Origin: a virus
Direction: 5' to 3' (one strand)
IMG/VR virus record: IMGVR_UViG_3300050509_000438
Coordinates: 14,416-78,415 of that record
DNA length: 64,000 bases
Shown here: positions 25,500 through 60,883 of the stretch, piece by piece
Layout: the number at the start of each line of letters is the position of its first letter
Numbering within the stretch: position 1 is the stretch's first letter
Program-made: the position numbers and the translations under genes
The notes under the pieces: generated by a model
What the model saw: the letters and a program-made list of their open reading frames with translations, nothing else
Databases searched by the model: none
What the model was told of the DNA's origin: nothing

Positions 25500-26110
25500 G
25501 CTGCCTCTCTTTTATACTCCGGAAATGTCTCCAAAAATAACTTAACATTCTTCTCGATCTTCACCACACCACGTTTGTAGTAATCATGCTGGCGATTCAC
25601 GATACGCTTGAAGAGGCGAGATGTGTTCTTCTTACTCACCGCTACGAGCAGCGCTTGCCTGTAACCGCTGACATCGAGGTACCAGGCAATACCTTGATCA
25701 TAATGGAATCTGTTAACAGCATCATCGAATGCTCGATCGGTTTCAACACTGAGACCTTTCAATTCAAATACTAAGCTTAGCGCTCTGCTATCTCCATCCA
25801 TTTTGCATCTTGCAGGAACCCCAAACCTATTAGATCGGTACCATTCATGTTGTCGTCTTAAATCATGCACCCATAATAATTGCTGACAAATGGGGTCAGT
25901 TTTAAAAGTTCTTGCCATAGAAAGAGCTTTTTCAATATCCTGGTGTTCATAATTTGCTTGATGAGGTTGCATTATGCAATCTTCAACCAATCTCCCAAAG
26001 GCAAATATCTCTTCCAAATCGGACGGATCTTGAAAATCAGGATTGATCATTTTCTGTAGTTTTTTCAGATCGCTATTGCTTATGTAATGATGATTAAAAT
26101 ATGAATCCAT
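25496..26110 (-). CDS. PD-(D/E)xK exonuclease candidate (partner of RecT)
   Basis: KMDGDSRALSLVFELKGLS (D...E-x-K) followed by HYDQGIAWYLD (Q-x-x-x-Y). Lies in a recombination module with RecT. Confidence 0.5.
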   Translation of the reverse strand: MDSYFNHHYISNSDLKKLQKMINPDFQDPSDLEEIFAFGRLVEDCIMQPHQANYEHQDIEKALSMARTFKTDPICQQLLWVHDLRRQHEWYRSNRFGVPARCKMDGDSRALSLVFELKGLSVETDRAFDDAVNRFHYDQGIAWYLDVSGYRQALLVAVSKKNTSRLFKRIVNRQHDYYKRGVVKIEKNVKLFLETFPEYKREAA

Positions 26111-35763: not shown

Positions 35764-36051
35764 ATGGAAGATATTATCTGTAAGCGTTGTGGCTCCGTCA
35801 ACGATTTCTCTGCCACACCATCAGGTCCTCACCTGAAAGCTACCTGCAATAAGTGTGGCCAGTACATAAAATTCCTGCCTCAACAACAAACAAAACCAAC
35901 CCTTTACTTCGGGAAATACCGCGGCCGCGAGATCTCGTCCATGAATTCCGAGGAGGATCTGCGCTACCTGCAATGGCTTATATCGCAACCCGATCTAAAA
36001 CCAAAGCTTAAGACCGATATTCAGTTCCAACTCAAACGCCTTGGTAAGTGA
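35764..36051 (+). CDS. Zn-ribbon + DUF3820-like protein
   Basis: CKRCGS...CNKCGQ, then YFGKYRGREISSM...LRYLQWL (the FGKYKG...YL-W pattern of DUF3820). Overlaps the primase gene start. Confidence 0.5.
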   Translation: MEDIICKRCGSVNDFSATPSGPHLKATCNKCGQYIKFLPQQQTKPTLYFGKYRGREISSMNSEEDLRYLQWLISQPDLKPKLKTDIQFQLKRLGK

Positions 36052-38009
36052 GTACCGCCGAAACAGCAAATCGCCTCATAGAATGCGGGATGTCGGTGAT
36101 CCCCATCCAGATGCCAAGCAAGGTTCCTACTGTAAAAGCATGGCATCAGTTCCAGCAGCATCCACCAGCCCCGGGGGAGCTTACTTTCAACGGAGGAATG
36201 GCGATGATCTGCGGAAAAGCCTACAATCTGGAGTGTCTCGACATCGATTTGAAGTACGATATGACCGGAACCCTGCTTCAGCGCTTCCAGGATGCGCTCG
36301 GAGAGCTATGGGAACACCTGGAACCGCTGATTTTGATACAGCAGACCGTAAAAGGAGGCGTTCACCTGGTTTACCGGTGCAAAGAGGTCGGAAACAACGA
36401 AAAACTAGCCTCCAGGCCCACTACAGAGGCCGAAAAAGCCTTAAATCCAGGCGAAAAATGCAAGGTTTTGCTCGAAACCCGTGGTGAAGGCGGTTATTTC
36501 GTCATCAGCCCAACCCCCGGCTATGAGGTCCTCCAGGGATCCTTCGAAAACATCGGCTGGATCACCCCGGACCAGCGCCGGCAGCTCCTTGATGCCGCAA
36601 AATCACTCAATGAGTACTGGGAAGAGGTCTCTGTGCGCCCCACTCGCAAAGTTCAGGAGGCCGCCGGAGGTCTGCGGTCATGGGAGGACTACGACCGGAA
36701 GGCGGATGTTGCCGCCCTCCTCGAAAAACACGGCTGGACCTACGTCCGGTCCAATGCCAGGCAGCAGTTTTGGAAGCGGCCCGGCTCAACCGACAGCCTC
36801 TGGAGCGCATCCTACCACCCGGAGCTCAACCTGTTCTATGTCTACAGCTCCTCGGTAGCTGATTTATCCGCAGGCAAGGCATATACGCCCAGCGCGCTGC
36901 TCGCCCACCTGGAGTTCAAAGGCGACTTTGAGTCCATGGCCCGCGATCTCTTCCGCCTGGGATACGGTGATCATACCAAAACCCCTCAAAAACCATCAAA
37001 TCAGCCCAATTTGCCAGGCGGGTCACCCGTCAGCCTAGCTCCCGCGCAGCGCAATCAGCCTACCGATGCACCTGACCAGGAAGCCATGAAAGCCATTTGG
37101 CGCGAGGTGCTGGTCACCAGCGAGCCTCCGGAAGATGTGGTCCTGCTCCAGATCCAGAACGTGCCGGTCGCCACCCTGGGCAACCACTCGCTCCTGATCG
37201 GGAAGAAGAAGTCCCGCAAGACCCTCTTCATCTCCTGGCTCATCAGCCAGTATCAAGGCCAGATCGATACCGATATCATGCTCTTCGACACCGAGCAGGG
37301 ACGCCGTCACGTATGGCGCCTGCGCGAGAAGATATACCAGCTTACCGGCGTTTACATCCCCACGTTCTACCTGCGTGGCAAGAGCCTGGAGGAACGCCGC
37401 CAGATCATCGACGGCACATTGAAACACTGGCCTACCAGGCCCCGCATCATCATCATCGACGGTATCCGCGACCTGATCTCCAACATCAACGATCCCGACC
37501 AGTCAACAGACCTTATCCTCTGGCTTGAGCGCTTGATCCTATCCTATAACATACACGTAGTCAACGTACTGCACATCAACAAGACCGACAACAACGCCCG
37601 CGGGCACATCGGCTCAGAGCTCCTCAACAAGGCTGAGATCACGATCGAGCTCGAGAAAGACGAAGCCTCCGGCTCCACGATCGTCAAATGCGAGTCGAGT
37701 CGTGACAAGCCCTTCGAGGACTTCTCCTTCACTCACGGTGATGATGACCTGCCGGTGCTCTGTTCCCTGCCGGTCAGAGGCCAGGTATTACCAGAAAGCG
37801 AACGACGCATACGCCTGCAGGCAGCCTTTGACGGACGCATGCTCAAATACTCCGAAGCCGTCGAAGAGATCAAAGCCCAGTTCGGCGTGGGCCGAGATAA
37901 AGCAAGAACCCTGATAGCGGAGTTCCACCGGAAAGGATGGCTCATCAAAGTGGGGGCAACAGAAGGCAAAAACTCAAACCAGAACGTGACCTACAAACTC
38001 ATGATATAA
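36048..38009 (+). CDS. Bifunctional primase-polymerase / P-loop (RepA/DnaB-like) helicase
   Basis: 653 aa. The N-terminus has MSVIPIQMPSKVPTVKAWHQF, CLDIDLKY, GGVHLVYRC and ETRGEGGYFVISP (Prim-Pol layout). The C-terminus has LLIGKKKSRKTLF (P-loop-like), RIIIIDGIRDL (Walker B) and VLHINKTDNNARGH. Confidence 0.75.
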   Translation: MSTAETANRLIECGMSVIPIQMPSKVPTVKAWHQFQQHPPAPGELTFNGGMAMICGKAYNLECLDIDLKYDMTGTLLQRFQDALGELWEHLEPLILIQQTVKGGVHLVYRCKEVGNNEKLASRPTTEAEKALNPGEKCKVLLETRGEGGYFVISPTPGYEVLQGSFENIGWITPDQRRQLLDAAKSLNEYWEEVSVRPTRKVQEAAGGLRSWEDYDRKADVAALLEKHGWTYVRSNARQQFWKRPGSTDSLWSASYHPELNLFYVYSSSVADLSAGKAYTPSALLAHLEFKGDFESMARDLFRLGYGDHTKTPQKPSNQPNLPGGSPVSLAPAQRNQPTDAPDQEAMKAIWREVLVTSEPPEDVVLLQIQNVPVATLGNHSLLIGKKKSRKTLFISWLISQYQGQIDTDIMLFDTEQGRRHVWRLREKIYQLTGVYIPTFYLRGKSLEERRQIIDGTLKHWPTRPRIIIIDGIRDLISNINDPDQSTDLILWLERLILSYNIHVVNVLHINKTDNNARGHIGSELLNKAEITIELEKDEASGSTIVKCESSRDKPFEDFSFTHGDDDLPVLCSLPVRGQVLPESERRIRLQAAFDGRMLKYSEAVEEIKAQFGVGRDKARTLIAEFHRKGWLIKVGATEGKNSNQNVTYKLMI

Positions 38010-44193: not shown

Positions 44194-44678
44194 TCACTTT
44201 TAACGAGGTTTGCCATAACGGTGCCTGTGTTGAAGGTGTGAAGGAATTTTACATTGACAATTTTTATGGCCAAACCGCCGTATCGCTGGCTGATGCCATC
44301 GATGCTGGAGCTGACCTAAAATATTTAGGAGGCTACGGCTACGGCGACGGCTACGGCTACGGCGACGGCTACGGCGACGGCTACGGCTACGGCAACGGCG
44401 ACGGCTACGGCAACGGCTACGGCGACGGCGACGGCTACGGCAACGGCAACGGCGACGGCTACGGCGACGGCAACGGCAACGGCTACGGCGACGGCGACGG
44501 CTACGGCAACGGCAACGGCGACGGCTACGGCGACGGCGACGGCGACGGCAACGGCGACGGCGACGGCTACGGCAACGGCAACGGCGACGGCTACGGCGAC
44601 GGCGACGGCGACGGCAACGGCGACGGCTACGGCAACGGCTACGGCGACGGCAACGGCGGTTGGCCCAAACCATCATGA
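44178..44678 (+). CDS. Gly-Tyr-Asp-Asn repeat protein (GYGDGYGNG...)
   Basis: 166 aa: an ordinary 50-aa N-terminal domain followed by 111 codons of strict G-[Y/D/N] alternation. The stop overlaps the recombinase ATG (ATGA). Confidence 0.55.
   Translation: MDNRLITFNEVCHNGACVEGVKEFYIDNFYGQTAVSLADAIDAGADLKYLGGYGYGDGYGYGDGYGDGYGYGNGDGYGNGYGDGDGYGNGNGDGYGDGNGNGYGDGDGYGNGNGDGYGDGDGDGNGDGDGYGNGNGDGYGDGDGDGNGDGYGNGYGDGNGGWPKPS
44328..44660 (+). repeat. Perfect hexanucleotide coding microsatellite (GGC-NAC)n, N = T/G/A
   Basis: 333 nt read directly. Every Gly codon except the first (GGA) and the last (GGT) is GGC, and every second codon is TAC, GAC or AAC. Nested longer tandem units are visible. Confidence 0.95.
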
Positions 44679-45223
44679 CCCTAGGCTACGCCCGCGTGAG
44701 CCGCGAAGACCAGGACCTCACCCGCCAGATCGACGCCCTGCAAAAGGCTGGCTGTGATAAGCTCTACCTCGATAAGATGTCGGGCGTCAAAAACTCCCGG
44801 CCTGAGCTTGACAAGCTGCTGATCGACGTGCAGCCAGGCGATACTGTGGTGGTCCATAAGCTCGACCGCCTGGGCAGATCTACTATCCACCTGCTGAGCA
44901 CCGTCACGGGCTGGCGCGATCGCGGGATACACTTCAGATCGCTCAGCGAGAGCCTGGACACCTCTTCGCCCCATGGCCGGATGATCTTTACGGTGATGGC
45001 AGCCTTTGCTGAGCTCGAGCGCGACATGATCTCGGAACGCACCAGGCATGCGCTCAGTGTGAAGAAGAGCAATGGACAGCGTATGGGGAGGCCGGAGGCT
45101 GACAGGACGCAAACTAAATCTGAGATTGCGGCTATGGTTGAGCGTGGTATGTCAGATGCCGAGATCATATCAGAGCTCAGGATGGGGAGAAGTACTTATT
45201 ATAGGTTGAAGGCTAAGCTATGA
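44675..45223 (+). CDS. Small serine recombinase (resolvase/invertase family)
   Basis: MTLGYARVSREDQDLTRQ...DKMSGVKNSRPELDKLL...GDTVVVHKLDRLGRS...FRSLSESLDTSSPHGRMIF...FAELERDMISERT, plus a C-terminal HTH (MSDAEIISELRMGRSTYYRL). Confidence 0.85.
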   Translation: MTLGYARVSREDQDLTRQIDALQKAGCDKLYLDKMSGVKNSRPELDKLLIDVQPGDTVVVHKLDRLGRSTIHLLSTVTGWRDRGIHFRSLSESLDTSSPHGRMIFTVMAAFAELERDMISERTRHALSVKKSNGQRMGRPEADRTQTKSEIAAMVERGMSDAEIISELRMGRSTYYRLKAKL

Positions 45224-47868: not shown

Positions 47869-48165
47869 ATGAGCAAAGACAAATTCGAGTACTTCCACAA
47901 CCACGGTGACGAAGAGGGCAACAATAGCCTCACTATTTGCTATGGGGATTCAAGCGAGCCTGATCATATCATGGTCACCTGTGAGGACACAGAAGAAGAT
48001 GCCATCGAAGCAGTGAGGCGGCTTAATGTAATCTTGGACACCTACGCCCAGCAAAAGGTCGATGAGTTCAAGGAGAAGTTGAAGATTGCTATTTGGAATC
48101 GATACCAACGGAGTGACTATCATTTAACCATCACATGTATTAATAAAGACATCGATAACCTATGA
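47869..48165 (+). CDS. Hypothetical protein
   Basis: 98-aa ORF. A TACCTTTA box lies at 47728-47735 in the upstream gap. Confidence 0.5.
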   Translation: MSKDKFEYFHNHGDEEGNNSLTICYGDSSEPDHIMVTCEDTEEDAIEAVRRLNVILDTYAQQKVDEFKEKLKIAIWNRYQRSDYHLTITCINKDIDNL

Positions 48166-48890
48166 AAAACTTCCACATCTTCCTTGATCCCACCGGTACG
48201 TGGAAAGGGAATGAGTTTCCGGACGAGCCAGGTAGATTTTTTACCTATTACAGTGCTGGTGGCAAAACTGCTGAAACAGCACAAGAAGCCGGAAGAATTT
48301 ATCAAATAGCCGTCAAGAAGCTAAAGTCCGAAGCCCTCGAAGCCAAGGATGTTCCCGCTGAACAGATTAATCCTGATGATCCGACAAGGTGGCTATTGTA
48401 TCTGGTCGAAGATGACCCCATTGAAGTCGTTCCCGGCGTTCTTTACCCCTGGGACGGAGGGTGGAAAATTTATGAGGATATGCAAGAGGACATCGGTGGT
48501 ATCTATAAAATTCGTCTCCTCCCCAAGTCTCCGGTAACCCTTGGTGCTTGTATTATTTGTGGGGCTATTGAAGGAGAACCGCACTATGCGACTTGCAGTA
48601 AAGCAACAACCGCAGCGCCGCCGACTCCGTTAATTCCGGAACGCAGCATCGCCTCGCCTGATCACTTACCCTCACTCAACACAGGCATAGTAGCCACGGG
48701 AGAACCTGAGTTTAATGTCAGGGATAACGCTATAGTAGTAAGTGGTACCGTTTCAGGCAAATCATCATCTGAAATCCTTGATGAGTTTTCTACCTTGAGG
48801 GGAGCCACAGGAAGAGAGGAGCCACAGGAAGAGAGGAGCCTGAACTATGGCAGTCAATCGATGCAAACAAGCCTAAGTATATCTGTTTAA
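48162..48890 (+). CDS. Hypothetical protein
   Basis: 242-aa ORF. Confidence 0.5.
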   Translation: MKNFHIFLDPTGTWKGNEFPDEPGRFFTYYSAGGKTAETAQEAGRIYQIAVKKLKSEALEAKDVPAEQINPDDPTRWLLYLVEDDPIEVVPGVLYPWDGGWKIYEDMQEDIGGIYKIRLLPKSPVTLGACIICGAIEGEPHYATCSKATTAAPPTPLIPERSIASPDHLPSLNTGIVATGEPEFNVRDNAIVVSGTVSGKSSSEILDEFSTLRGATGREEPQEERSLNYGSQSMQTSLSISV

Positions 48891-49035
48891 CGAACGTGTA
48901 CACCGATGGCATGCCTCTGCCACTGCTTGAATTTTGGGCACAAGTTGAGAATTGGTACGGAGACATTCAGAAAAAAGAAACAGGCGAACAGTTCTTAAAA
49001 CGAATGCTCGAAAAATACACCATAACCCGCAAGCC

Positions 49036-49449: not shown

Positions 49450-49679
49450 CCGCCAGCAACATCGAGCACGAAGGAGAGTGCCAAGAGTGCCTCCGACATG
49501 AGAAAGACGGGCAACTGCTTTGTGATAAGATTGCCAAGCTAGAGCATGAGAACAGGGAACTGCGGGATGCACTGAAGAGTTTCGTTTACAGCGCGGCAGT
49601 AGATGCTATTTTGGAGATGAATCCCAATAGCGAATTTTCAGCAAAGCATGAAACAGCTCGTAAACTCCTCGAACCATGA
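49446..49679 (+). CDS. Hypothetical protein
   Basis: 77-aa ORF with a 4-nt overlap. Confidence 0.5.
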   Translation: MTASNIEHEGECQECLRHEKDGQLLCDKIAKLEHENRELRDALKSFVYSAAVDAILEMNPNSEFSAKHETARKLLEP

Positions 49680-49920
49680 AAACAGAAACCATCTTCATCG
49701 TAGCGATAGTCTTCGCTATATGCACCCCTTGTAAAGACAATAGAAAACATGCAATTGCGTGATGAGATTCAGGAATTAAAAACAAAATGTGACTGCCAAT
49801 ATTGAAACTATTTCAAACCATATGACTCAGCAGTTTTATAACTGCACATGCGAAGCGATGGCAGCCAGAGGCACGCCATGTCTTTGTTTTGCATGTAACA
49901 ATATTAAAATACCAAAAACT

Positions 49921-50520
49921 ATGATTGACATCATCCGCGATGAGCTTACCTCTTCCAGGTATGTGCTCACTGAGTTTATTAAAAACGAAGCCAACCTGCA
50001 GTCCATCCAACGCGCCGCAGACATTATGATCACCTGCCTGAAGAACGGCGGTAAGATCATCGCCTGCGGTAACGGCGGTAGTATGTGCGATGCCATGCAC
50101 TTCGCCTCTGAGCTTACCGGGAAGTACAGGAAAGACAGACCTCCTATTGCTGCGCTGGCAATCGGGGATCCTGCGCATTTGAGTTGTGTGGGGAATGATT
50201 ATGGGTACCGGGAAGTCTTTGGACGATACGTTAAGGCGCACGCAAAGACCGGGGATGTGTTACTGGCGCTAAGCACAAGTGGTAATAGTGATAACATAAT
50301 CATTGCTTCACATGCAATGCACATAAAGCAATGTGCGGTTGTCTACATCACAGGTAATGACAAGAACAGTTTGGTTCATAAGACGGCACTTATTGGTGGA
50401 GGTGACTGCTTGATTGAAATACCTCATTCTGGATCGGCAGATAGAATTCAGGAGGTTGGATTGATTGTTATACATGTTTTGTGTAACTTGATAGAAAAAG
50501 GCATCTATGAAGAAGATTAA
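49921..50520 (+). CDS. gmhA: Phosphoheptose isomerase GmhA (SIS domain)
   Basis: MIDIIRDEL...IQRAADIM...GGKIIACGNGGSMCDAMHFASELTGKYRKDRPPIAALAI.DPAHLSCVGNDYGYREVFGRYV...GDVLLALSTSGNS.N...ADRIQEVGLIVIHVLCNLIE is collinear with E. coli GmhA over its whole length. The track ORF extends 44 codons further upstream (49789). Confidence 0.85.
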   Translation: MIDIIRDELTSSRYVLTEFIKNEANLQSIQRAADIMITCLKNGGKIIACGNGGSMCDAMHFASELTGKYRKDRPPIAALAIGDPAHLSCVGNDYGYREVFGRYVKAHAKTGDVLLALSTSGNSDNIIIASHAMHIKQCAVVYITGNDKNSLVHKTALIGGGDCLIEIPHSGSADRIQEVGLIVIHVLCNLIEKGIYEED

Positions 50521-51217
50521 ATTAACTCATGGAGAATATGCTCTTGTTGATTCTGATGATTCTGATGATTTTGACTTTTTGAGTCAGTATACATGGAGTT
50601 TGTGTATAAACGTAAAAAATAGAACAAACCGATATGCAGCCACAAATATCGCAGGCAAAACCATTCACATGCACCATCTTCTTTTGAAGAAAAAGAGCGG
50701 ATTTGTTAGAGACCATATAGATAAAAATGGACTCAACAATCAACGGAAAAATCTTAGATATCTCACTATCTCTCAAAACAACTTTAATCAAAAGAGAAGA
50801 ACCAATACGCGAACTGGTATCACTGGAGTTTATTTTGAAGATAATTCATATGTAGTTAAAATATCTTTTAAAGGGAAAAACATCCATATAGGTAGATCCA
50901 AATCTCTCATGGTAGCCAAGAAGTTAAGAAAAGATGCAGAGAAAAAATACTATCCGAATATTAAGATTGGTAAGGAAACAGATATTGTGCATTACCCCAA
51001 GCCTCCAAAAATTCCACTGCATGAACGACAACCAAATAAGAATAGAACTTACAAATACAAAGGGGTATATCCACATGCTTTGAAATGGAGAGCAGCAATA
51101 AGTAATGGTAAAAAGGGAATGAAGTACTTAGGATTATACAGCACACAGGAGGAAGCTGCAAAAGTATATATACAAGCATTCAAAGAAAAACATGGAGTGG
51201 CTCCATATTCTATTTGA
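50507..51217 (+). CDS. HNH (HNH_3-type) homing endonuclease with AP2 DNA-binding domains
   Basis: HMHHLLLKKKSGFVRDHIDKNGLNNQRKNLRYLTISQN (HNH_3). TGITGVYFEDNSYVVKISFKGKNIHIGR and YKYKGVYPHALKWRAAISNGKKGMKYLGLYSTQEEAAKVY are AP2 repeats. Visibly AT-rich compared with the flanks. Confidence 0.8.
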   Translation: MKKIKLTHGEYALVDSDDSDDFDFLSQYTWSLCINVKNRTNRYAATNIAGKTIHMHHLLLKKKSGFVRDHIDKNGLNNQRKNLRYLTISQNNFNQKRRTNTRTGITGVYFEDNSYVVKISFKGKNIHIGRSKSLMVAKKLRKDAEKKYYPNIKIGKETDIVHYPKPPKIPLHERQPNKNRTYKYKGVYPHALKWRAAISNGKKGMKYLGLYSTQEEAAKVYIQAFKEKHGVAPYSI

Positions 51218-51522
51218 TGTCATCCACATCCTGGTTCACCTTATTGAGAAAGGGCTGGGGCATGAGTAGGTTGCTACGAAAGATGAAGAAGCGGATTAAG
51301 AAGATCCTGAACAGTCCAGAGATTAAAGAAGCACTGCGAGAGATGTCTGACTCCTTGCTGACCTATGGTCGCGCCATCAAATACATGCGAACTCCACCAA
51401 TGACTGACGAGCAGAAGAAGGCTTTGTTTGAGGAACGCGGCATATCTATCCATACTGAGACAATGACACCAGAAGAAGCAATGGAACGATATGGTCTTAC
51501 AAAGGAGTACTTAGGCTTATGA
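51214..51522 (+). CDS. Hypothetical protein
   Basis: 102-aa ORF. Confidence 0.45.
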   Translation: MMSSTSWFTLLRKGWGMSRLLRKMKKRIKKILNSPEIKEALREMSDSLLTYGRAIKYMRTPPMTDEQKKALFEERGISIHTETMTPEEAMERYGLTKEYLGL

Positions 51523-51683: not shown

Positions 51684-51706
51684 ATCAATAAATCAATAAA
51701 ACTAAT

Positions 51707-51934
51707 ATGAAGAACTACGAAATGACAGACGATGAACTGGACAAGATGAAATCCATTTCTCAAGACAACACACCGGTTATGAAATTCGGTGAGTACTGGT
51801 CCGGTATGGACAAGCAGGAACGGGCTAACACTTTTTGGAAAGAGCTCGCAGTTAAGTACGGGTTTGTATGGGATTCAGCCGAGGCTATACCAGGTGAATC
51901 TGATATCAAAAAGTTTCAAGCACAGGAGGTGTGA
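51707..51934 (+). CDS. Hypothetical protein
   Basis: 75-aa ORF. Confidence 0.5.
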   Translation: MKNYEMTDDELDKMKSISQDNTPVMKFGEYWSGMDKQERANTFWKELAVKYGFVWDSAEAIPGESDIKKFQAQEV

Positions 51935-52287
51935 CCGGACCTGAAATCCAAATCCGTGAGAAGATCAAAGGCCAGGAGCAGCGCATTGCCAACTGCCAGA
52001 AGAAGATCGAGGCTCTGAATAAGGAACTCGAAGACTATCTGGCCAGCGTGCCTCCGAAGCCTGAGCCATTCGCAGTATTGCCAAAGGAGGATCACCATGA
52101 TTACTGCGGTAAGATTCTGTATCATTCAGAGAAGGCAGCCCATGCAGCGCGGAAGCTGATCAATCGTGATCTCAAGAAGGTAGGTAAGCCTCCGCTCAAG
52201 CGGGCGTATCTGTGCGATAAATGTGAGGCGTGGCACTTGACTACAGTTGAGAGTTGGATACCTTATCCGGAAATGGGTGGCAGGTAG
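51931..52287 (+). CDS. Hypothetical protein (C-terminal CxxC...WH Zn-like motif)
   Basis: 118 aa containing YLCDKCEAWHLTT. Last gene of the plus block; converges on and overlaps the GT2 gene end. Confidence 0.5.
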   Translation: MTGPEIQIREKIKGQEQRIANCQKKIEALNKELEDYLASVPPKPEPFAVLPKEDHHDYCGKILYHSEKAAHAARKLINRDLKKVGKPPLKRAYLCDKCEAWHLTTVESWIPYPEMGGR

Positions 52288-53096
52288 TTCATGATTTGAT
52301 TGCGTAGGTGAGGGTAGCGATCAGCACACCATTCACGTATGTACACCGGCAGTGGCCCAGGAATAGGCACAATGTCATCTCCCTGGAATGGGAACTTACT
52401 CCAATCGAAGACTTCACCGATGCGTGAGTCCATGCCGAGGCCAAAGATATCAACGAGCATATTCTTAGCCTTTACCACATGTTTAACAGGATCTCTAATA
52501 TAACCGGCGTGGTAAATTTCGATCGCATCTTCACGTCCGAAGACATGAACACTATTTGATGCAACATGCTCACCATCATCGTATGAACGACAATGTGATT
52601 TCGCTAATCGGATTACCTCTGTTGAACAAGGTTTCCGTTCTTGAATCACATTTAGCATTGATAAAGGATCTCGCCAAGCATTGTATCTCTTACAAACATA
52701 TGCTTCAACATCATGTTCGATTGCTTCTCGAATGACCGGAAAGCTCCTTGGATAGATGATCTCGTCTGCCTGAAGCAGAACTGTCCAGTCACAACCATTA
52801 GCTTCGAGTATCCCCATGGCAACATTTTGAAAATAGCTCAATTTTTGCCTACCCATCTGAGCGTTCCAATCACTATAAGTTATCTCAAATAATTCACAAT
52901 GGCCTATGGCATTAGAATGAATTAATTCTTCCACAGCGCTTTTTGTTCCATCATTCCCGCCAGCTAATACCACAACATTGTCACACAAGTCCAGCAAGCA
53001 CTGCATTGACTCACGAAAATTGTAGTCTTGACTTATTCCATTCCATACAAATAGACATCCGCCGAGTTTTTTCATACTTTGCGCGCTACGATCCAA
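52263..53096 (-). CDS. Glycosyltransferase (GT2-like) candidate
   Basis: 277 aa. The N-terminal CLFVWNGISQDYNFRESMQCLLDLCDNVVVLAGGNDGT has the layout of GT-A/GT2 enzymes. Sits within the sugar-modification island. Confidence 0.45.
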   Translation of the reverse strand: MDRSAQSMKKLGGCLFVWNGISQDYNFRESMQCLLDLCDNVVVLAGGNDGTKSAVEELIHSNAIGHCELFEITYSDWNAQMGRQKLSYFQNVAMGILEANGCDWTVLLQADEIIYPRSFPVIREAIEHDVEAYVCKRYNAWRDPLSMLNVIQERKPCSTEVIRLAKSHCRSYDDGEHVASNSVHVFGREDAIEIYHAGYIRDPVKHVVKAKNMLVDIFGLGMDSRIGEVFDWSKFPFQGDDIVPIPGPLPVYIREWCADRYPHLRNQIMNYLPPISG

Positions 53097-53602
53097 AAAC
53101 TATACCTATCCTCACCTATATCGAGCCCGTGATCAACCAGATCAAACATCTTTGGCAGATGCTCACCTTTGAAGTCCTTGCCTTCGCCACAGAAAGCGCG
53201 CCGGAACCAGAACATAAATGGGTCATACTTTATGTCAATCATGTGCTCGGGATTGGATTTGTTGTCGTAATAATCACCATCTGGAAGATAGAGCACGAGA
53301 TGACCGCCACTTTTAAGGACATGATACCATGTAATTACTGTTAGATATTGGTCACGGCAATGTTCCAAAAAATGCGATGAAAATATTGTATCAAACTTGT
53401 CTCTCTTAACAAACTTGATCTTATCCCAAAATTCATCGTGAATGCCAACTATATCAACACCCGGGAGAGAGCGGCCATCGAACCCGATCGCTTCAGGTAT
53501 GATCTTATCACCGCCGCATGCAACATCGAGAACCTCGCCCGTAATGTACTTCATCACCTGTGGCAAGTCTCTAACCTTCGCCGCTTCACTCATGTACGCC
53601 AT
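53072..53602 (-). CDS. Class I SAM-dependent methyltransferase
   Basis: Motif I is GEVLDVACGGDKIIPEAIGFDG, with later FDTIFSSHFLEH and LKSGGHLVLY. Confidence 0.65.
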   Translation of the reverse strand: MAYMSEAAKVRDLPQVMKYITGEVLDVACGGDKIIPEAIGFDGRSLPGVDIVGIHDEFWDKIKFVKRDKFDTIFSSHFLEHCRDQYLTVITWYHVLKSGGHLVLYLPDGDYYDNKSNPEHMIDIKYDPFMFWFRRAFCGEGKDFKGEHLPKMFDLVDHGLDIGEDRYSFWIVARKV

Positions 53603-54203
53603 AAGCCCATTGTTTAGTTTTAAGAATTGATTTTATGCGTTCATATTCATCGGCGCCCCATGGAGATCTCCACCCGAACCAGGCGCTTCCGTTCCACTTC
53701 TTGTGATAGTCTGGGAAGACAATTGCATTCATCCCTGGCAGCATCTCAGGCTTCCACAGTGATCGGTGAGCCTCCGGGTCATTGTTATCATCCTCCGCCA
53801 TTCCAAACAGATCGGTAAGAGGCGTGAAGATGATCTGTTTGTGAGAGAGCATAATCATTGTACGGATGAGTTTCATACCATCCTCCAGTTTCAAGTGCTC
53901 AATACCATCAGAACAGATTGCTACATCGAATGGATTAATGACCTTCGCATCGATAATCCAGTCCGGACAAGCAAGTTGTAGCACATCCATTTGCCTGAAA
54001 AACTGTTGCTCCTCCTTATGATCAAGTTCTCTCGGCAGCACATCCACATAACACCGCTTACTAAAACCGAGCTTCGGAGTGTTCGGTGCGAACGCACACA
54101 TCAGATCAATCATCGACTTGCCTTCGGTGTCTCCACAGATCGCTCTCATCACGTCCATGTATACTTCGATGTTGCCTACTACGTTTGGGAAGGTGAGGGT
54201 CAT
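53586..54203 (-). CDS. Methyltransferase-like protein (degenerate class I fold)
   Basis: MIDLMCAFAPNTP...FDVAICSDGIEHLKLEDGMKLIRTM has the class I MTase post-I/II/III layout with a weak motif I. Confidence 0.4.
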   Translation of the reverse strand: MTLTFPNVVGNIEVYMDVMRAICGDTEGKSMIDLMCAFAPNTPKLGFSKRCYVDVLPRELDHKEEQQFFRQMDVLQLACPDWIIDAKVINPFDVAICSDGIEHLKLEDGMKLIRTMIMLSHKQIIFTPLTDLFGMAEDDNNDPEAHRSLWKPEMLPGMNAIVFPDYHKKWNGSAWFGWRSPWGADEYERIKSILKTKQWAYGVHE

Positions 54204-55618
54204 GATAAATAATATCCCAGTTGATCAATAATCAAATCAATATCCCATGTAATGCATGGTGGTCGTTGTACATTAACTACACAATCTTTGCCAACCTCCG
54301 ATAAAACATCGTGATAGCATCCTGCCTTCGCTACTGGACAGGGCCTCTGTAGTACAAATAAGTTACTCCGATCATAATACCGATACTTTGGATCAACAGA
54401 TCCAAAAAACACAATGCTCTTCACACCACAGGCCATCGCTATTTGAGCACAACCCGAGTCGATCCCGATAAAGTACGAAGCCCCAGCAATGACATAAGCG
54501 AGCACTGGCTCTGTGGGAGTGTTGATGTGGACAGCAGCATCTCGCCGTCCGCCGATCTGAAACACCTTGTATTTTGTGTGGGCCTCGATCCATTTAACCA
54601 CCTCCGCCCAATCCACCCCATGCACATTCCTGTGCGCCATTGCCGTATCATCCACATGCAGCACAATATAGTCATCGAAGAGCCGTGTCTCCGCCGTGGG
54701 CGCGAAGTTAAGCTTAGGATTACGCAGCGTATACTCTGTGATCCCCGCCGCCTTGTAATACGACTCCAGCACCAGCTTCCTTGGCTCTACCTCGTAAGCC
54801 ATGTCCAGGTTGATGATCCGGTAGCCGCCGAGGTCTTCCTTCAGGTGCGGCGCGTACTCGACCTGGAAATAGTGCTTCTCGAAGAGGTTATAGTACGGAG
54901 GCAAGCAGTCAAGGATCACCCGGTAGCCGTCGTTATGCAGGCGCTCCAGCAGCGGCTCAGCCATGATCACGTCGCCCATGGCCCCTGTACGGTGTACGAT
55001 CACAGGCTCGCGGTAGGGCTGATGGAAGAGGGCGTGGAACCCGAACGTCTTCTGCCTGGGAGCATGCATCTCGAAGCTGAAGCGGTGCGCGAGGTCTTCA
55101 GGAGCGAACTTGTAGCCGTATCGCTCTTCCAGGATCTTCCGGTACAACCGGCAGATCACCTCGTCCTCCGGAGCATATACACCATTATATGCCACAAACT
55201 CATCCGTACCCATGGCATGCATCAGCCGATAGCTCCGCATGCTGAACCCACCATTGCCCACGTTACGTCCATCCCTGTAGTTCCACGGCGCGCCGATGTA
55301 GTCATAGTCCATGAACTCGTCAGTCCATGCGCTGGAATCAAGCACATACCCGTCAAACTGGATTAAAAGAACATGTGAAGTTTTAATATGCTTCCATAGC
55401 TCACAACAAACAAATTTATTGTAGTTTAACCAATCAAGCTTTTCAATAAGCACACACTTGAAGTCATCGTCCTGATATTCTACATCAGTGAAAAATAAAG
55501 TTTCGGCAGGATGTATTTGTTCAAGAGATTTTTTGATTGATGAAATAGTTGGCCCATAATCTCTGGTTGTTATTGCCACCATGGTAATATCCTTTAGGTG
55601 CTTCATGCGTATTGCCAT
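54200..55618 (-). CDS. Fusion of DUF5672-like domain and GT9 (ADP-heptose heptosyltransferase-like) domain
   Basis: 472 aa. The N-terminal half has YDYIGAPWNYRDGRNVGNGGFSMRS (DUF5672 signature). The C-terminal half has VIVHRTGAMGDVIMAEPLLERL and FIGIDSGCAQIAMACGVKSIVFFGS (GT9 signatures). Confidence 0.65.
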   Translation of the reverse strand: MAIRMKHLKDITMVAITTRDYGPTISSIKKSLEQIHPAETLFFTDVEYQDDDFKCVLIEKLDWLNYNKFVCCELWKHIKTSHVLLIQFDGYVLDSSAWTDEFMDYDYIGAPWNYRDGRNVGNGGFSMRSYRLMHAMGTDEFVAYNGVYAPEDEVICRLYRKILEERYGYKFAPEDLAHRFSFEMHAPRQKTFGFHALFHQPYREPVIVHRTGAMGDVIMAEPLLERLHNDGYRVILDCLPPYYNLFEKHYFQVEYAPHLKEDLGGYRIINLDMAYEVEPRKLVLESYYKAAGITEYTLRNPKLNFAPTAETRLFDDYIVLHVDDTAMAHRNVHGVDWAEVVKWIEAHTKYKVFQIGGRRDAAVHINTPTEPVLAYVIAGASYFIGIDSGCAQIAMACGVKSIVFFGSVDPKYRYYDRSNLFVLQRPCPVAKAGCYHDVLSEVGKDCVVNVQRPPCITWDIDLIIDQLGYYLS

Positions 55619-55797
55619 TTAAAACCCCTGAAAGAATCTCGCTTACCTTTGCAACACTTAATAATGTCAACAGACCAAGCAATTCTAGCACGTTCAATGT
55701 CTGCAATAGCATCCCATGTTTTAACCACATCAGATGCTTCCTTTTCCTCTTTACATCGGTAGCATACCTTGCTGATCACTACTGCTGTCTCAATCAT
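55603..55797 (-). CDS. Small protein resembling a homing-endonuclease DNA-binding (NUMOD-like) remnant
   Basis: 64 aa ending in ...IIKCCKGKRDSFRGFKWQYA, similar to the sI..c..gk...agGf.W.y tail of NUMOD/IENR modules (weak). Confidence 0.3.
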   Translation of the reverse strand: MIETAVVISKVCYRCKEEKEASDVVKTWDAIADIERARIAWSVDIIKCCKGKRDSFRGFKWQYA

Positions 55798-56150
55798 ATC
55801 TTCGCTATCAAATCCGTCATCCTCATAATAAGAACTTCCTTGCCGTCAACTTCATGTCTCACGCCGGCATACTTGCTATGCAGCACGCGATCACCAGGCT
55901 TGAAGTCAACCTTCGGAGGCTCGACGCGAGCCGGGATCGGCACGTTGAAGAACTCGCAGACCGCGATCAGTACCCACAGGATCTTGGTGAGCGTGGGATC
56001 GTTATTGAGACCGGGGCCAATAGCGATGATCGTTCCTTGCGCGGGGCGCAGGCGTTCTTTGCTGGTATCGGGTACGATGATACCGTTGATGTCATCAGGA
56101 GCTGCATCAGGCTCGATAATTACGCGGTCTTCGAGGGGGAGTAGGGGCAT
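55794..56150 (-). CDS. groES: GroES/Cpn10 co-chaperonin homolog
   Basis: LPLEDRVIIEPD...NGIIVPDTSKE...GTIIAIGPG...KPGDRVLHSKYAGVRHEVDGKEVLIMRMTDLIAKI shows full-length Cpn10 collinearity with an internal insertion. Confidence 0.75.
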   Translation of the reverse strand: MPLLPLEDRVIIEPDAAPDDINGIIVPDTSKERLRPAQGTIIAIGPGLNNDPTLTKILWVLIAVCEFFNVPIPARVEPPKVDFKPGDRVLHSKYAGVRHEVDGKEVLIMRMTDLIAKI

Positions 56151-56539: not shown

Positions 56540-56940
56540 AACTTATTGATGATGTACCTTTTCGCATCTTCGATATTCTGATTTCCATTGCCATCATAGC
56601 CACCTGTGGAAAACGGTGAATGGTTATAACCTTCATCAATTCTCTTCATCAGTGCTTGCTTCGTGGTTTCTTCAGGACTCCATTGTCCTTCAAATCCATA
56701 GCAAGAGCAGTGTGATCCGTGGACCTCATACAACTTCCCTTCTTTTTCAAAGAGAAACCACGATGAAGAGTCGCAACCATAATCACCAACAGATTCGTAT
56801 GCGATAAGTATTTTACACTTACGCAACGACTTCTTTAATTCTTTATCTACTTGCTCATACTCAGCATTACCATACTGGGAGACAATGTGAGCCTTCACCT
56901 GTGTGGTATTCATGTCCTTTAAATCTTCTAGTGCTATCAT
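56536..56940 (-). CDS. Hypothetical protein
   Basis: 134-aa ORF with 4-nt overlaps on both sides. Confidence 0.5.
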   Translation of the reverse strand: MIALEDLKDMNTTQVKAHIVSQYGNAEYEQVDKELKKSLRKCKILIAYESVGDYGCDSSSWFLFEKEGKLYEVHGSHCSCYGFEGQWSPEETTKQALMKRIDEGYNHSPFSTGGYDGNGNQNIEDAKRYIINKL

Positions 56941-57773
56941 AACTCCTTCATCATTTTATCAACCAAATAAACCAATCCTTCCTGAAATTGAAAATCCCAC
57001 CCATTGGGTCCGATCGGCTGCACATTCGGCGCGAAGTCACAGACTTCCAGGAGACGATGCGACTTTAACCCTTCAGCGATCGCGTAGCACATACTCTGGT
57101 TACCGATAAAAAACTTGCAGCACTTGATGGCGATCGCAAGCTCAAGGAAGTTATCCACGACCAGCAAAGGTAACTCAAATCCCCAATCCTTCTGGAACTT
57201 CTCGTGTTCCTGCGGCAGCCCACAGAACATCAGTTGCTCCTTGTATTTCTCCATGAACCAGTAGGTCAGGTACGGCTTGTTGTAGCGCGAGGTGCGGTTG
57301 ATGAGAACTTTCTGATTGGCTTTGTTGTGGTACCATGATGGGAAATTATGCCACGGCACATGCAACCATGGCTTACTCAAATCGCACTGCGTATCCGGGT
57401 AGCAGAACCCGAGCCATCGGTGGATTGAGCCGTAGGGCATGCCGATGAATTTGGTCCTGTGAACATCGAGATCTACAACGATCTCCTCTCCCTTCCAGAT
57501 GTTGAAGCTATTAACGTATGCCTGGGCCTCGATAAGGGGCTTCATCATGTCGTAGGCATGCTGCGGAAACATGGACTCATAAGGATGCTCTGCGCCCTGG
57601 TAATAGAACGCCTTCTGGTCAAGCCACATGTAGATGTCGGCCTTGGCGCCCAGGTTCTCGCAGGCGGTTTTGACGGCGGGGAGGAACGAGATCAGGTCGC
57701 CTGAAGGACCCGATGACTTGAATGATATGGTTTTCATTTCCATGTTCTGTTTGATAGCACAGATCTGATACAA
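56937..57773 (-). CDS. GT-B glycosyltransferase, GT9-like (second heptosyltransferase candidate)
   Basis: ISFKSSGPSGDLISFLPAVK (N-terminal GT9-like) and CKFFIGNQSMCYAIAEGLKSHRLLE (the f-I-G-n-D-S-G...A-x-A-l-g pattern). Weaker than in 54200-55618. Confidence 0.4.
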   Translation of the reverse strand: MYQICAIKQNMEMKTISFKSSGPSGDLISFLPAVKTACENLGAKADIYMWLDQKAFYYQGAEHPYESMFPQHAYDMMKPLIEAQAYVNSFNIWKGEEIVVDLDVHRTKFIGMPYGSIHRWLGFCYPDTQCDLSKPWLHVPWHNFPSWYHNKANQKVLINRTSRYNKPYLTYWFMEKYKEQLMFCGLPQEHEKFQKDWGFELPLLVVDNFLELAIAIKCCKFFIGNQSMCYAIAEGLKSHRLLEVCDFAPNVQPIGPNGWDFQFQEGLVYLVDKMMKEL

Positions 57774-58727: not shown

Positions 58728-59066
58728 ATGAGAGACCCACAAGAAATTGCAACAGTTGAGCCTAAGTCAACTTACAGAATTCCTACGTACAAAGTTACCA
58801 ATGAAGGATTGGTAGATGGTGATGGATGCGCATTGGACTTCTGCAAAGGCAATAAAGAAGATGAATCTGTTCCACGTCAGGAAGGTGTTTTTACTGAAAC
58901 CCTGATCGCCGCCGCAAAAAAATATCTCGAAGAGAACAACGTCGGAGACCTTGCTACACGCGAGACCTCAATGGCTATTACCAAGCTTGATGAAGCGCTG
59001 CTCTGGATCGGTAAGCGCGCCGCAGATCGGCAGAGACGTGGTGTACAAGGCACTTACCAGAAATGA
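58728..59066 (+). CDS. Hypothetical protein
   Basis: 112-aa ORF with a conserved-looking C-terminal helix (SMAITKLDEALLWIGKRAADRQRRGVQGT). Confidence 0.55.
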   Translation: MRDPQEIATVEPKSTYRIPTYKVTNEGLVDGDGCALDFCKGNKEDESVPRQEGVFTETLIAAAKKYLEENNVGDLATRETSMAITKLDEALLWIGKRAADRQRRGVQGTYQK

Positions 59067-59554
59067 ACCTCCACGCCCTCTACATCCTCCTGATCTTTCT
59101 CGCCGGTGGTCTCGGCTACTACCTCGGCACTCTCCCTCAACCATCAACCACTCCTTCTGACCTTCAGGCTGCACGCGACAGCCTGAAGGCTCAGAGGCTT
59201 CAAAGCATAGCGCGCGAGCAATGGTACATCGACGAGATCGCCAGGGATAGCGCTGCGATCGTAGCACTCGAAGCCAAGGAATATTCCCACCAAGTCAAAA
59301 TACACACCTATGAGAAACGTTTGCAAGACCTTCGTAATGTGCCTGTCGCTCATCCTGACAGCTTCCTTATCTGGCGCTACCCAGGACCTGCTCCTGGTAG
59401 ACCGGTGGCGCCTGGAGATGGCGGCGCGGGAACTGATGCAGAAGGACCTGCAGGACAGTTTGCTGGTGCAGAAGGACAGTTTGATAAATACTCTACAGCA
59501 GATCAACGGGACCCGGCTCAGTATGATCTCATCGCTCAATGGAGTGATCACTGA
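59063..59554 (+). CDS. N-terminally anchored coiled-coil protein (i-spanin-like), 3-prime part doubtful
   Basis: The N-terminal TM helix (LHALYILLIFLAGGLGYYLG) is followed by helical sequence to about residue 90. The rest is G/A/P-rich, junk-like sequence overlapped by the next ORF. Confidence 0.45.
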   Translation: MNLHALYILLIFLAGGLGYYLGTLPQPSTTPSDLQAARDSLKAQRLQSIAREQWYIDEIARDSAAIVALEAKEYSHQVKIHTYEKRLQDLRNVPVAHPDSFLIWRYPGPAPGRPVAPGDGGAGTDAEGPAGQFAGAEGQFDKYSTADQRDPAQYDLIAQWSDH

Positions 59555-59880: not shown

Positions 59881-60479
59881 ATCATTTGATCTTCGTTGAA
59901 TAATGCGTAGGAAAAAGGCTTGGCATAAAACTCCCATGACCGGGCACCAACATTGTACCATACAGCATGCTCCTTGTCGTCCTGTAGCACCTGGCATCCT
60001 GCTGAGAATGCACCGACCTTCTCCACGTTCGTATCGTGACGAGTAGTGTGTCCGTTGACTCCTTGAGAGTCTTTATAAATCTTCCCTGTGAGGTCGAGCA
60101 CGCCATCAGAATCGAAATCACGATAGCCTGAGAATACCCCAGGACCTGACTGAACCATAGCCGCGTATTTGCCATTATGCAGCCCCGGCTTCCAGCATCC
60201 AGCATGGAACCCGGCAGCAACAATGAACGTGCCTTTGTCGTTACCGAGCTTATCCTTGAGGTACACCAGTCCGGGCTTGGTAGTGCCTTTAAAGATCAGG
60301 CAGTGCTTATTAAGAAACACATCACACCAGGCAACGCCGATCAGATCATTGAACTCATTGACCGTTGTATCCTTCGACCGGATTCCGAAGTAGTTCACTT
60401 CATATTTACCGGTAAGGAATGGATACTTGTTGTCAGAATATTTATCCTGAATGAGCGCGTAGGTGATGGTTGTGTTCAT
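59877..60479 (-). CDS. Cell-wall hydrolase (endolysin) candidate
   Basis: 200 aa. GTTKPG...FIVAAGFHAGCWKPGLHNGKYAAMVQ...YRDFDSDGVLD...GVNGHTTRHD...FSAGCQVL is a pattern I associate with phage peptidoglycan peptidases (unverified). Flanked by small membrane proteins. Confidence 0.4.
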   Translation of the reverse strand: MNTTITYALIQDKYSDNKYPFLTGKYEVNYFGIRSKDTTVNEFNDLIGVAWCDVFLNKHCLIFKGTTKPGLVYLKDKLGNDKGTFIVAAGFHAGCWKPGLHNGKYAAMVQSGPGVFSGYRDFDSDGVLDLTGKIYKDSQGVNGHTTRHDTNVEKVGAFSAGCQVLQDDKEHAVWYNVGARSWEFYAKPFSYALFNEDQMI

Positions 60480-60883
60480 GCTTCAATTATAGTGGCCAGT
60501 ACAAATCCTGTTTGATCCTCGTAGAATGGCTCAAGGCTGATCTTGATGCTGAACTCTGTCTTGTCTTTTTTAAGACCACGGAGCGACATATCCGTAGTGC
60601 CCATGTTTCTGAACTTAGGGATCTTACTGTAATTAGAAAGATGCGCGTCGTGGCGTGCTCGATACTCTTCCGGCATCAGGTCCGTTATTTTCTTCCCCTC
60701 TATTTCATTGTAGATGTAGCCGAATATATCGTTGATGCGCTTGGAGGCAAAAACGATTAGCCCGGTGGTCATCTCCACTACAATGCAGGGGGCCTGATCG
60801 AGGATCTTCTCATGGATCGTGTTCCTGTCTCCATGAACAAGTTTGAACTTCAGGTCAGCGAGACGTTGTTTGATGTCATCCAT
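60476..60883 (-). CDS. Stand-alone PAS domain protein, FixL (heme-PAS) like
   Basis: ILDQAPCIVVEMTTGLIVFASKRINDIFGYIYNEIEGKKITDLMPEEYRARHDAHLSNY...LRGLKKDKTEFSIKISLEPF is collinear with the FixL heme-PAS (ILMPEPDRSRHDSYISRY...TGKRRDGTTFPMHLSIGEM), including the position of the proximal His. Confidence 0.7.
   Translation of the reverse strand: MDDIKQRLADLKFKLVHGDRNTIHEKILDQAPCIVVEMTTGLIVFASKRINDIFGYIYNEIEGKKITDLMPEEYRARHDAHLSNYSKIPKFRNMGTTDMSLRGLKKDKTEFSIKISLEPFYEDQTGFVLATIIEA

Follow-up and report, generated by a model that had tools for sequence, protein, structure and literature searches.

Heptose genes have been found in phages before. gmhA is listed among the well-characterized viral auxiliary metabolic genes (AMGs) (PMC9238414), and nucleoside diphosphate (NDP)-heptose biosynthetic enzymes have been documented in viruses, where their role is stated to be unsolved (PMC11573728). 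Phage-borne GmhA is annotated in Caulobacter phage Cr30 and in Synechococcus phages, and GT9 and Aah/TibC-like annotations of phage proteins are likewise already known. Here we analyzed a gmhA gene on a 64,000-nucleotide stretch of the IMG/VR virus record IMGVR_UViG_3300050509_000438 (positions 14,416 to 78,415 of that record, hereafter the window). This locus shares the phage-borne GmhA with those systems, and differs from them in that candidates for all four steps of heptose nucleotide synthesis are encoded together with a TibC/GT9-like transferase and are split over two strands; on other viral contigs (L044–L049; L and P numbers denote loci and proteins compared in this study), hldA abuts gmhA, unlike here. 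We found no description of a Cys4 module fused to GmhA, of a tail-replacing endonuclease cassette, or of an epimerase-less pathway linked to a TibC-like enzyme in this phage family. The gene and its parts are as follows.

49822..50520, plus strand: gmhA, probable full product of 232 amino acids (aa), consisting of a Cys4 N-terminal module and the SIS/GmhA core (homology, aligned long-form starts, AlphaFold2 (AF2) model)
49921..50520, plus strand: SIS/GmhA catalytic core, 199 aa, equal to the public gene call P0001 (homology; internal ATG conserved)
49822..49920, plus strand: 33-codon Cys-rich N-terminal module, putative metal knuckle (conservation, codon pattern, AF2)
49789..49821, plus strand: 11 in-frame open codons from a GTG, probably untranslated (without counterpart in relatives)

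The open reading frame (ORF) 49789..50520 (+) is a 243-codon frame opening at GTG, and its translation contains all GmhA motifs quoted in an earlier interpretation made from the letters alone (the sequence-only reading), which had described 49921–50520 as collinear with E. coli GmhA from end to end. This description was borne out by a phmmer search against all PDB chains, in which E. coli GmhA 2I22 ranked first (E = 1.6e-58, judged far beyond chance) and V. cholerae 1X94 next (E = 1.9e-55), and residues 46–239 of the query (243-aa numbering) aligned with native residues 3–190 of 2I22 with a single 6-residue insertion. A hidden Markov model search for SIS/GmhA, as suggested in the same reading, gave Pfam SIS_2 (E = 4.3e-23) and, as the best NCBIfam model, the GmhA equivalog NF001628 (E = 4e-67, 225.6 bits, residues 47–239 against model positions 4–190 of 192). 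Speaking against the assignment, the equivalog cut-offs were missed (225.6 versus 265 bits for NF001628, 164.7 versus 209.45 bits for TIGR00441), which we read as divergence of the phage copy.

Mapping of E. coli residues onto the phage protein gave H61 to H104, E65 to E108, D94 to D137, Q172 to Q221 and H180 to H229 (243-aa numbering), and these five residues were invariant across both protein alignments (17–26 homologues). The phosphate loop S162-T163-S164-G165 was invariant in the first alignment, and in the second its first Ser was only nearly invariant. H61 and H180 are metal ligands in GmhA. Glu65, Asp94 and Gln172 of the E. coli enzyme have been named catalytic (PMC4697000), and a passage in PMC11056994 places Zn in the GmhA active site. 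Compared with bacterial GmhAs (E. coli 2I22/2I2W, V. cholerae 1X94, B. pseudomallei 2X3Y), the phage protein has the SIS fold in common over a full-length alignment, is ~51% identical to E. coli GmhA, and keeps the catalytic and Zn-site residues as well as the STSG loop, whereas it differs in its 33-residue Cys4 N-terminal module, in a 6-residue insertion before the last strand, in its C-terminal 17 codons, which come from a mobile cassette, and in being phage-encoded and not adjacent to hldA, gmhB or hldC. On this sequence evidence, the product is predicted to be a catalytically competent sedoheptulose-7-phosphate isomerase, GmhA, with a rough probability of 0.7, a joint figure for our whole best explanation.

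The remaining steps of the pathway were assigned to three genes on the other strand.

24739..25191, minus strand: HldC-like heptose-1-phosphate nucleotidyltransferase (rfaE_dom_II, E = 8.7e-11; CTP_transf_like, 1.2e-5)
23268..24185, minus strand: HldA-like heptose-7-phosphate kinase (rfaE_dom_I, E = 1.6e-55; PfkB, 6e-13)
22904..23284, minus strand: haloacid dehalogenase (HAD) phosphatase of 126 aa, GmhB analogue (NF046079, BT0820 family, E = 3.3e-19, below cut-off)

As the sequence-only reading had proposed, GmhA completes a pathway whose other genes, HldA, the HAD phosphatase and HldC, lie about 25 kb away on the other strand, and the pathway is split over two strand blocks: gmhA ends a plus-strand block, and hldC, three small overlapping ORFs, hldA and the HAD phosphatase gene, which overlaps the hldA stop, form a tight minus-strand run ~25 kb off. 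The small phosphatase is a BT0820-type HAD enzyme and no GmhB orthologue. GmhA would be the entry of a phage-encoded four-enzyme route, followed by the HldA kinase, the HAD phosphatase and the HldC nucleotidyltransferase. The HldC match was weak (41.8 bits), which counts against this scheme at its last step, so ADP as the nucleotide is only the default assumption. The stretch of HldC that aligned by eye to (F/L)xxGRSTT, described as a promiscuity motif (PMC11573728), reads LGDKISSS, without Arg.

The same reading had seen no HldD epimerase of the short-chain dehydrogenase/reductase (SDR) type in the window and had predicted a D,D-heptose nucleotide as the product. The absence holds and extends to the whole ~78.4-kb genome (JGI 3300006853 Ga0075420_100000026 and near-identical contigs), of which the window is the larger part and the off-window 14.4 kb, covered by L008 and L009, holds large structural genes only: no Epimerase or SDR match was obtained in a Pfam scan of window ORFs of at least 250 aa or, for the remaining large window ORFs and the off-window ORFs, in precomputed annotation, and tblastn with a query representing E. 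coli HldD gave at best E = 0.15 over 35 residues. Since no HldD is encoded, the sugar should stay in the D,D form, which supports that prediction. HldA homologues were found on many 77–82 kb contigs. Their co-occurrence with gmhA and the glycosyltransferase (GT) described below was inferred from equal contig sizes in the protein search, in which contigs of 78511, 80169 and 78201 recurred in the homologue lists of HldA, gmhA and the GT, and at least 12 further sizes of 67–82 kb in the HldA and GT lists only. A single-sequence HldA scan of IMG/VR gave no match, and a promoter and terminator scan of 48.0–53.5 kb gave counts no higher than those of shuffled sequences.

The closest functional neighbour of gmhA, missed by the sequence-only reading, is a GT/methyltransferase cluster that begins 1.7 kb downstream, runs to 8 kb on the minus strand and converges on the plus-strand block closed by gmhA.

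52263..53096, minus strand: conserved 277-aa protein, weakly GT2-like (Glycos_transf_2 in 3 of 9 homologues, best E = 2e-4)
53072..53602, minus strand: S-adenosylmethionine (SAM)-dependent methyltransferase (Methyltransf_23, 3.6e-7; conserved synteny)
53586..54203, minus strand: 205-aa protein between the methyltransferase and the GT
54200..55618, minus strand: 472-aa protein with a DUF5672 (GT-A-like) and a GT9/TibC-like heptosyltransferase domain, putative heptose sink (Pfam, AF2, Foldseek, profile)
55794..56150, minus strand: Cpn10-like protein of 118 aa, adjoining the GT
56937..57773, minus strand: conserved 278-aa protein in the glyco-cluster

The order gmhA, 277-aa protein, methyltransferase, 205-aa protein, 472-aa GT, Cpn10-like protein and 278-aa protein was wholly or partly kept in L001, L003, L010, L012, L043 and L056, and the GmhAs of relatives sharing this order are 51–61% identical. 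The 472-aa protein matched Pfam DUF5672 (E = 4.8e-19). In a Foldseek search of the PDB with its AF2 model (predicted local distance difference test score, pLDDT, 87.7), TibC chains came first (E = 5e-11 to 3e-9), followed by GT9 enzymes such as WaaC (2e-8) and WaaF (1e-8 to 3e-7 for this group), and the DUF5672 N-terminal half matched GT-A enzymes. A PDB profile search with the family also placed TibC first (E = 0.0055; GT9 enzymes 0.15–0.5), and the nearest viral folds in BFVD were phage proteins annotated RfaF, Aah/TibC and DUF5672. Homologues number in the hundreds, dozens of them on 72–84 kb contigs, and many reach the GT9 threshold. C427, C434, C446 and C455, which follow the GT-B C-lobe, were invariant in 35 homologues and lie only roughly at the place of the TibC iron finger (C339, C342, C358 and C370), to which they might correspond.

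TibC/AAH, a bacterial autotransporter heptosyltransferase (PDB 4RAP, 4RB4), is thus both the best structural and the best profile match of the 472-aa protein, the lipopolysaccharide (LPS) heptosyltransferases WaaC and WaaF being only slightly weaker ones. [quoted passage not shown] On the other hand, the N-terminal beta-barrel of TibC is replaced in the phage protein by the DUF5672 GT-A-like domain, TibC forms a dodecameric ring, and no autotransporter substrate gene is adjacent to the 472-aa gene. Three further points weigh against a link between gmhA and a TibC-like enzyme: the GT9 Pfam match of the 472-aa protein was just sub-threshold (4e-4, 20.2 versus 22 bits), the similarity to TibC amounts to 17% identity with a template modelling (TM) score of about 0.45–0.58, and gmhA and the cluster are on opposite strands. 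We propose that the consumer of the heptose nucleotide would be the phage's own 472-aa DUF5672+GT9 enzyme; a TibC-like consumer using D,D-heptose would make HldD unnecessary, coherent with its absence. The cluster is co-oriented with, and follows, a long structural-gene block, an orientation compatible with glycosylation of virion proteins, which we regard as a tentative and rather unlikely target.

Regarding the other cluster proteins, the top weak PDB profile matches of the 277-aa protein were GmaR and SunS, whereas PDB profile searches of the 205-aa and 278-aa proteins gave no match. The 205-aa protein is highly conserved and shows class-I methyltransferase-like motifs by eye (DLMCAFAPNTP; DVAICSDGIEHL), with no Pfam, PHROG or PDB match. 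In the 278-aa protein (56937..57773, −), a stretch reading ELAIAIK..FIGNQSMCYAIAE aligned with the GT9 donor-binding motif of the 472-aa enzyme, and hhalign of the two families recovered only this 32-residue GT9-like motif (24% probability); the 278-aa protein may be a second, very divergent GT-B-like protein. The last plus-strand gene (51931..52287) and the first cluster gene (52263..53096, −) overlap by 25 nt at their 3' ends, leaving no space for an intergenic terminator, and no terminator-like sites above chance were found. In addition, stand-alone DUF5672 genes were seen ~1–7 kb from gmhA- or hldA-like genes in several Proteobacteria (cellular contigs L073, L087, L121, L125, L131, L132 and L133), a hint of a general link between DUF5672 and heptose glycans.

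Other roles of the gene and of its product can be weighed against the same data. The SIS fold is shared by DiaA, a DnaA-binding factor, and a DiaA-like protein manipulating host replication without isomerase activity would fit the position of the gene in a block with replication and recombination genes and the existing DiaA matches (NF008138, E = 2.5e-34; structure 2YVA, E = 7e-31). The DiaA model scored about half as high as the GmhA model, however (118.7 versus 225.6 bits), all metal and catalytic residues are conserved, the remaining heptose-pathway genes are in the same genome, and the catalytic Glu is kept in the window protein, whereas E. coli DiaA carries Ser at the position of GmhA E65 (PMC4697000). 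We rejected DiaA identity on the model scores and on the retained Glu, and consider this role hardly credible. If the protein is GmhA, it could still be a generic AMG that boosts or maintains the heptose of host LPS or capsule, unconnected to the phage GTs. Besides the AMG listing cited above, relatives of GmhA are encoded at 46 IMG/VR viral loci, many of which lack this GT cluster in the fetched flanks, and the closest cellular GmhAs are from Bacteroidota, e.g. Rufibacter (~54% identity), so that likely hosts have the heptose pathway themselves. What a generic role leaves unexplained is the synteny of gmhA and the GT cluster across relatives with such divergent GmhAs and the retention of a complete four-step pathway with a dedicated GT9/TibC-like enzyme on many 77–82 kb contigs; moreover, an E. 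coli-type host LPS route would normally need L,D-heptose, hence HldD. We regard this role as doubtful.

The heptose nucleotide might instead hypermodify phage DNA, for example as heptosyl-5-hydroxymethylcytosine, since mono- and di-heptose are attached to 5-hydroxymethylcytosine (5hmC) by phage gene clusters that encode a GT-B enzyme and a cytidylyltransferase along with a HAD-like enzyme (bioRxiv 10.1101/2023.12.21.572611). With these clusters the present phage has in common a HAD-like enzyme, a nucleotidyltransferase and a GT-B enzyme handling heptose, and a methyltransferase adjoins the GT here. It differs from them in that no cytosine-C5 methyltransferase, TET/JBP-type dioxygenase, dCMP/dUMP hydroxymethylase or phage DNA polymerase was found (Pfam for the larger ORFs, precomputed annotation for the rest of the genome), that the methyltransferase of the cluster is a small generic class-I SAM enzyme, and that the GT is of GT9/TibC type, resembling TibC and WaaC and not the T4 beta-GT. 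Because no 5hmC-forming enzymes were found, DNA hypermodification is unlikely, and clearly so in our estimation. We retain GmhA as the predicted entry to a phage-encoded D,D-heptose route with the 472-aa protein as its candidate consumer.

The start of gmhA was a separate question. The sequence-only reading had pointed to 44 further open codons, Cys-rich, upstream of ATG 49921; they are present, and only the last 33, from ATG 49822, have counterparts in relatives. Three relatives of 58–77% identity (P0002, P0006 and P0008) are called as long forms of 229–236 aa, and their N-termini align with the window from M12 (= ATG 49822) over MT.(E)YY.C.CEA..A.G....C..C(D/N)..KIPKT, giving the module motif Y-x-C-x-C-E-A-x2-A-x-G-x4-C-x2-C, i.e. 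CxC-x11-CxxC; the sequence MTQQFYNCTCEAMAAR lies within the extension and would distinguish the 232-aa form from the short form. Ungapped DNA identity was 0.21–0.35 (random) upstream of ATG 49822 and 0.59–0.77 exactly from this ATG on. Fourteen of the 33 module residues, the four Cys included, were invariant in the four sequences, eight of them via synonymous codons; pairwise differences at the three codon positions were 54, 41 and 98, the third position being dominant; and only frame 0, the GmhA frame, was free of stops in all four. In L001, L004 and L005, the long-form ATG and the stop of the preceding gene overlap in an ATGA. The AF2 model of the gmhA product had a mean pLDDT of 87.3, with 81–83 for the N-terminal module, although only four alignment rows contained it. 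Because the extension is conserved from ATG 49822 with codon-patterned divergence, and the start is coupled by ATGA in relatives, we favour translation from ATG 49822 into a 232-aa product, and not one of 199 or 243 aa, as quite likely on these comparisons.

Several observations weigh against this start. The public gene call of the same genome (P0001) begins at 49921; ATG 49822 is uncoupled from the upstream gene in the window, with a 142-nt spacer between them; the extension is absent from most relatives, including the short-form relatives and each of the 8 IMG/VR loci whose upstream sequence was read, three on ~77-kb contigs among them; and Shine-Dalgarno-like motifs were seen at only 4 of the 23 gene starts checked, the phage using essentially no such sites, so ribosome-binding sites cannot choose between the two gmhA starts. 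The 199-aa protein from ATG 49921 might then be the only one made, with the upstream frame as an untranslated leader or as the vestige of a small ORF that had been fused. L003, L006 and L007 clearly have genuine short forms, with an ATGA coupling the short ATG to the stop of the preceding gene; conservation extends to the internal ATG and the 'IPKTM' junction; and E. coli GmhA begins at the position equivalent to ATG 49921. Yet it would be hard to reconcile an untranslated leader with one frame staying open in each of four sequences that are 59–77% identical in DNA over 33 codons, with 14 invariant residues amid mostly third-position changes, with conservation setting in exactly at the long ATG, with coupling of this ATG to the upstream gene in three relatives, and with recurrence of the module motif inside other proteins. 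We consider exclusive synthesis of the 199-aa form possible and not probable; alongside the favoured 232-aa product, the internal ATG 49921 could serve as a second start giving a short isoform. The 142-nt spacer is absent in relatives and contains a 28-codon hydrophobic mini-ORF (49676..49762, +; MKTETIFIVAIVFAICTPCKDNRKHAIA), the ATG of which forms an ATGA with the stop of the preceding gene.

A profile built from the four N-terminal extensions and searched against 1.84 billion representative proteins found just four other proteins, three stand-alone ones of 70–92 aa and one of 262 aa. The latter, the metagenomic protein P0241, carries the Cys motif internally (E = 4e-14) and shares N-terminal homology (LYPWDGGW...LLPKSPV) with window ORF 48162..48890 (+), located 1 kb upstream of gmhA. 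Y-x-C-x-C-E-A-x2-A-x-G-x4-C-F-x-C is thereby a rare mini-module in a few small or uncharacterized proteins, at least one of them related to a gene of this phage. ORF 48162..48890 has a different Cys/His cluster at the equivalent place, ACIICGAIEGEPHYATC. These matches point to an exchange of small metal-binding cassettes between genes in phages of this kind, and the CxC...CxxC arrangement of the four Cys suggests a putative metal knuckle, for which tethering, oligomerization and regulation are possible roles.

At its other end, gmhA is modified by a mobile element. Intron-less homing is known for the T-even seg and mob genes, and mobile endonuclease ORFs with replacement tails are better known at the 3' ends of mitochondrial genes.

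~50464..51217, plus strand: AT-rich homing-endonuclease cassette inserted in the gmhA 3' end (GC content, presence/absence)
50467..50520, plus strand: recoded gmhA tail from the cassette (VIHVLCNLIEKGIYEED and stop), including the H180-equivalent His codon (comparison with relatives)
50507..51217, plus strand: HNH-AP2 homing endonuclease ORF of 236 aa (phrog_99; homologue at the same site in L007)
51219..51269, plus strand: ancestral gmhA 3'-end remnant of 51 nt (VIHILVHLIEKGLGHE and stop), now non-coding for GmhA (identity to gmhA ends of relatives)
51262..51522, plus strand: next gene (MSRLLRKMKKRIKK...), with its ATG within the remnant (homologous to the gene directly after gmhA in L004 and L006)

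An AT-rich HNH-AP2 gene overlapping the 3' end of gmhA had been noted from the sequence, and we confirmed both its 14-nt overlap with the gmhA stop and its composition (GC 0.334 versus a window mean of 0.478, the sole 500-nt stretch below 0.36 GC in 64 kb). The ORF matched the PHROG family phrog_99 'HNH endonuclease' (1.3e-34); Pfam HNH_3 was just below its cut-off (22.4 versus 24.8 bits) and AP2 was below its own (E = 8.8e-4, 20 versus 33.3 bits), and YKGVY...W.A.I...LG...EEAA as well as a DH-x-D-x-N-x2-NN-x3-NLR stretch are visible in the translation. The earlier description can be taken further, in that the gene is inserted inside gmhA, replacing its last 17 codons. No HNH gene follows gmhA in L001, L003, L004, L005 or L006, and L007 has a 47%-identical homologue at the same site. 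Directly after the HNH stop, the remnant 51219–51269 is in frame and agrees at 42/45 to 45/49 nt with the end of gmhA in the HNH-less L001, L003 and L006, whose ancestral site sequence reads ...GTCATCCACATCCTGGTTCACCTTATTGAGAAAGG..., and its terminal ATGAGTAG still supplies ATG 51262 of the next gene. The working gmhA tail (50467–50520) is AT-rich and common only to the HNH-bearing relative L007/P0004 (ending ...YEED and a stop). Since the AT-rich tail is shared only with the HNH-bearing relative and the old end is left as a remnant, these comparisons indicate entry of a cassette with a replacement tail, inserted within gmhA and not merely overlapping it.

The cassette entered at the codons of the catalytic-His helix and brought recoded versions of the last 17 codons, the catalytic-His codon included, leaving the old end as a remnant, so that GmhA stays intact. 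In the mechanism we propose, the recoding would at the same time remove the endonuclease's own target site, protecting against self-cleavage. AT-richness, presence/absence polymorphism at one site, a putative HNH_3 and AP2 architecture (both Pfam matches sub-threshold here) and insertion beside or inside a highly conserved coding stretch are in common with free-standing HNH(-AP2) homing endonucleases of phages, whereas the recoded last 17 codons and the remnant of the old end set this cassette apart.

The rest of the genome is briefly described as follows. Replication and recombination genes at 36048..38009 (+), 28778..29731 (−) and 25496..26110 (−) encode a PrimPol fusion, RecT and a PDDEXK nuclease (DUF3799-like); the scanned ORFs included no DNA polymerase, and no tRNAs were found. 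A serine recombinase (44660..45223, +; Resolvase N-terminal domain, E = 4.7e-44, and a helix-turn-helix) is kept in L001 and L003 and could have an invertase or integration function. Inside the minus-strand block is a small plus-strand island (58728..59066 and 59063..59554), the first ORF of which has an Acb2/Tad1-hairpin domain in precomputed annotation (anti-CBASS/anti-Thoeris sponge family); L003 carries a Tad2-like gene as well at this place. Further minus-strand genes encode a 135-aa PAS-domain protein (60476..60883; PAS_9) and a tail protein with Gly_rich_2 and SASA (sialate O-acetylesterase-like) domains (781..2814). A second Cpn10/GroES-like match was C-terminal in an ORF of 272 aa that belongs to the structural block (18871..19689, −). 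The 465-aa ORF 62577..63974, which is not on record as such, is the C-terminal part of a 1653-aa gene starting off-window, and an off-window 1322-aa protein (L008, 17074..21042) has a crAss_MUZ_C (crAssphage muzzle) domain.

Contigs of ~78–82 kb that carry full-length homologues of the 472-aa protein had been binned into metagenome-assembled genomes (MAGs) of Cyclobacteriaceae, Chitinophagaceae, Mucilaginibacter and 'Bacteroidetes', binning being no proof of host; the nearest cellular GmhAs were from Hymenobacteraceae and Cytophagales, and the portal protein is P22-like and 21–23% identical to portals of Cellulophaga and Flavobacterium podophages. Based on the MAG binning, the nearest cellular GmhAs, the lack of Shine-Dalgarno sites and a portal distantly like those of Flavobacteriia podophages, the hosts are probably Bacteroidota. 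Megablast of window positions 49000–52500 against 50,697 phage records gave no match, and the lineage is unrepresented among isolates. As a speculative and on balance improbable extension, these ~78–82 kb Bacteroidota phages might carry a self-contained protein O-heptosylation system, comprising the four-step ADP-D,D-heptose pathway, the TibC-like GT with its fused second GT domain, methyltransferases and other GT-like proteins; its glycans, containing heptose and perhaps methylated, would be placed on virion proteins (beta-helical fibres, for instance) or on a surface protein of the host; in one sub-clade, GmhA would have gained the shuffled Cys4 module, also found on other proteins in these contigs, maybe for tethering or regulation.

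The Cys4 add-on probably shows how gene callers truncate a protein, the cost here being a conserved 33-residue module. The cassette offers a clean natural example of a homing endonuclease that has apparently invaded a coding region without inactivating the gene, and yields a predicted target sequence for the endonuclease. The locus also makes the unsolved role of viral NDP-heptose enzymes (PMC11573728) testable: a complete epimerase-less pathway conserved together with a TibC-like, presumably D,D-heptose-using cluster predicts a phage-directed heptose glycan on a specific acceptor.

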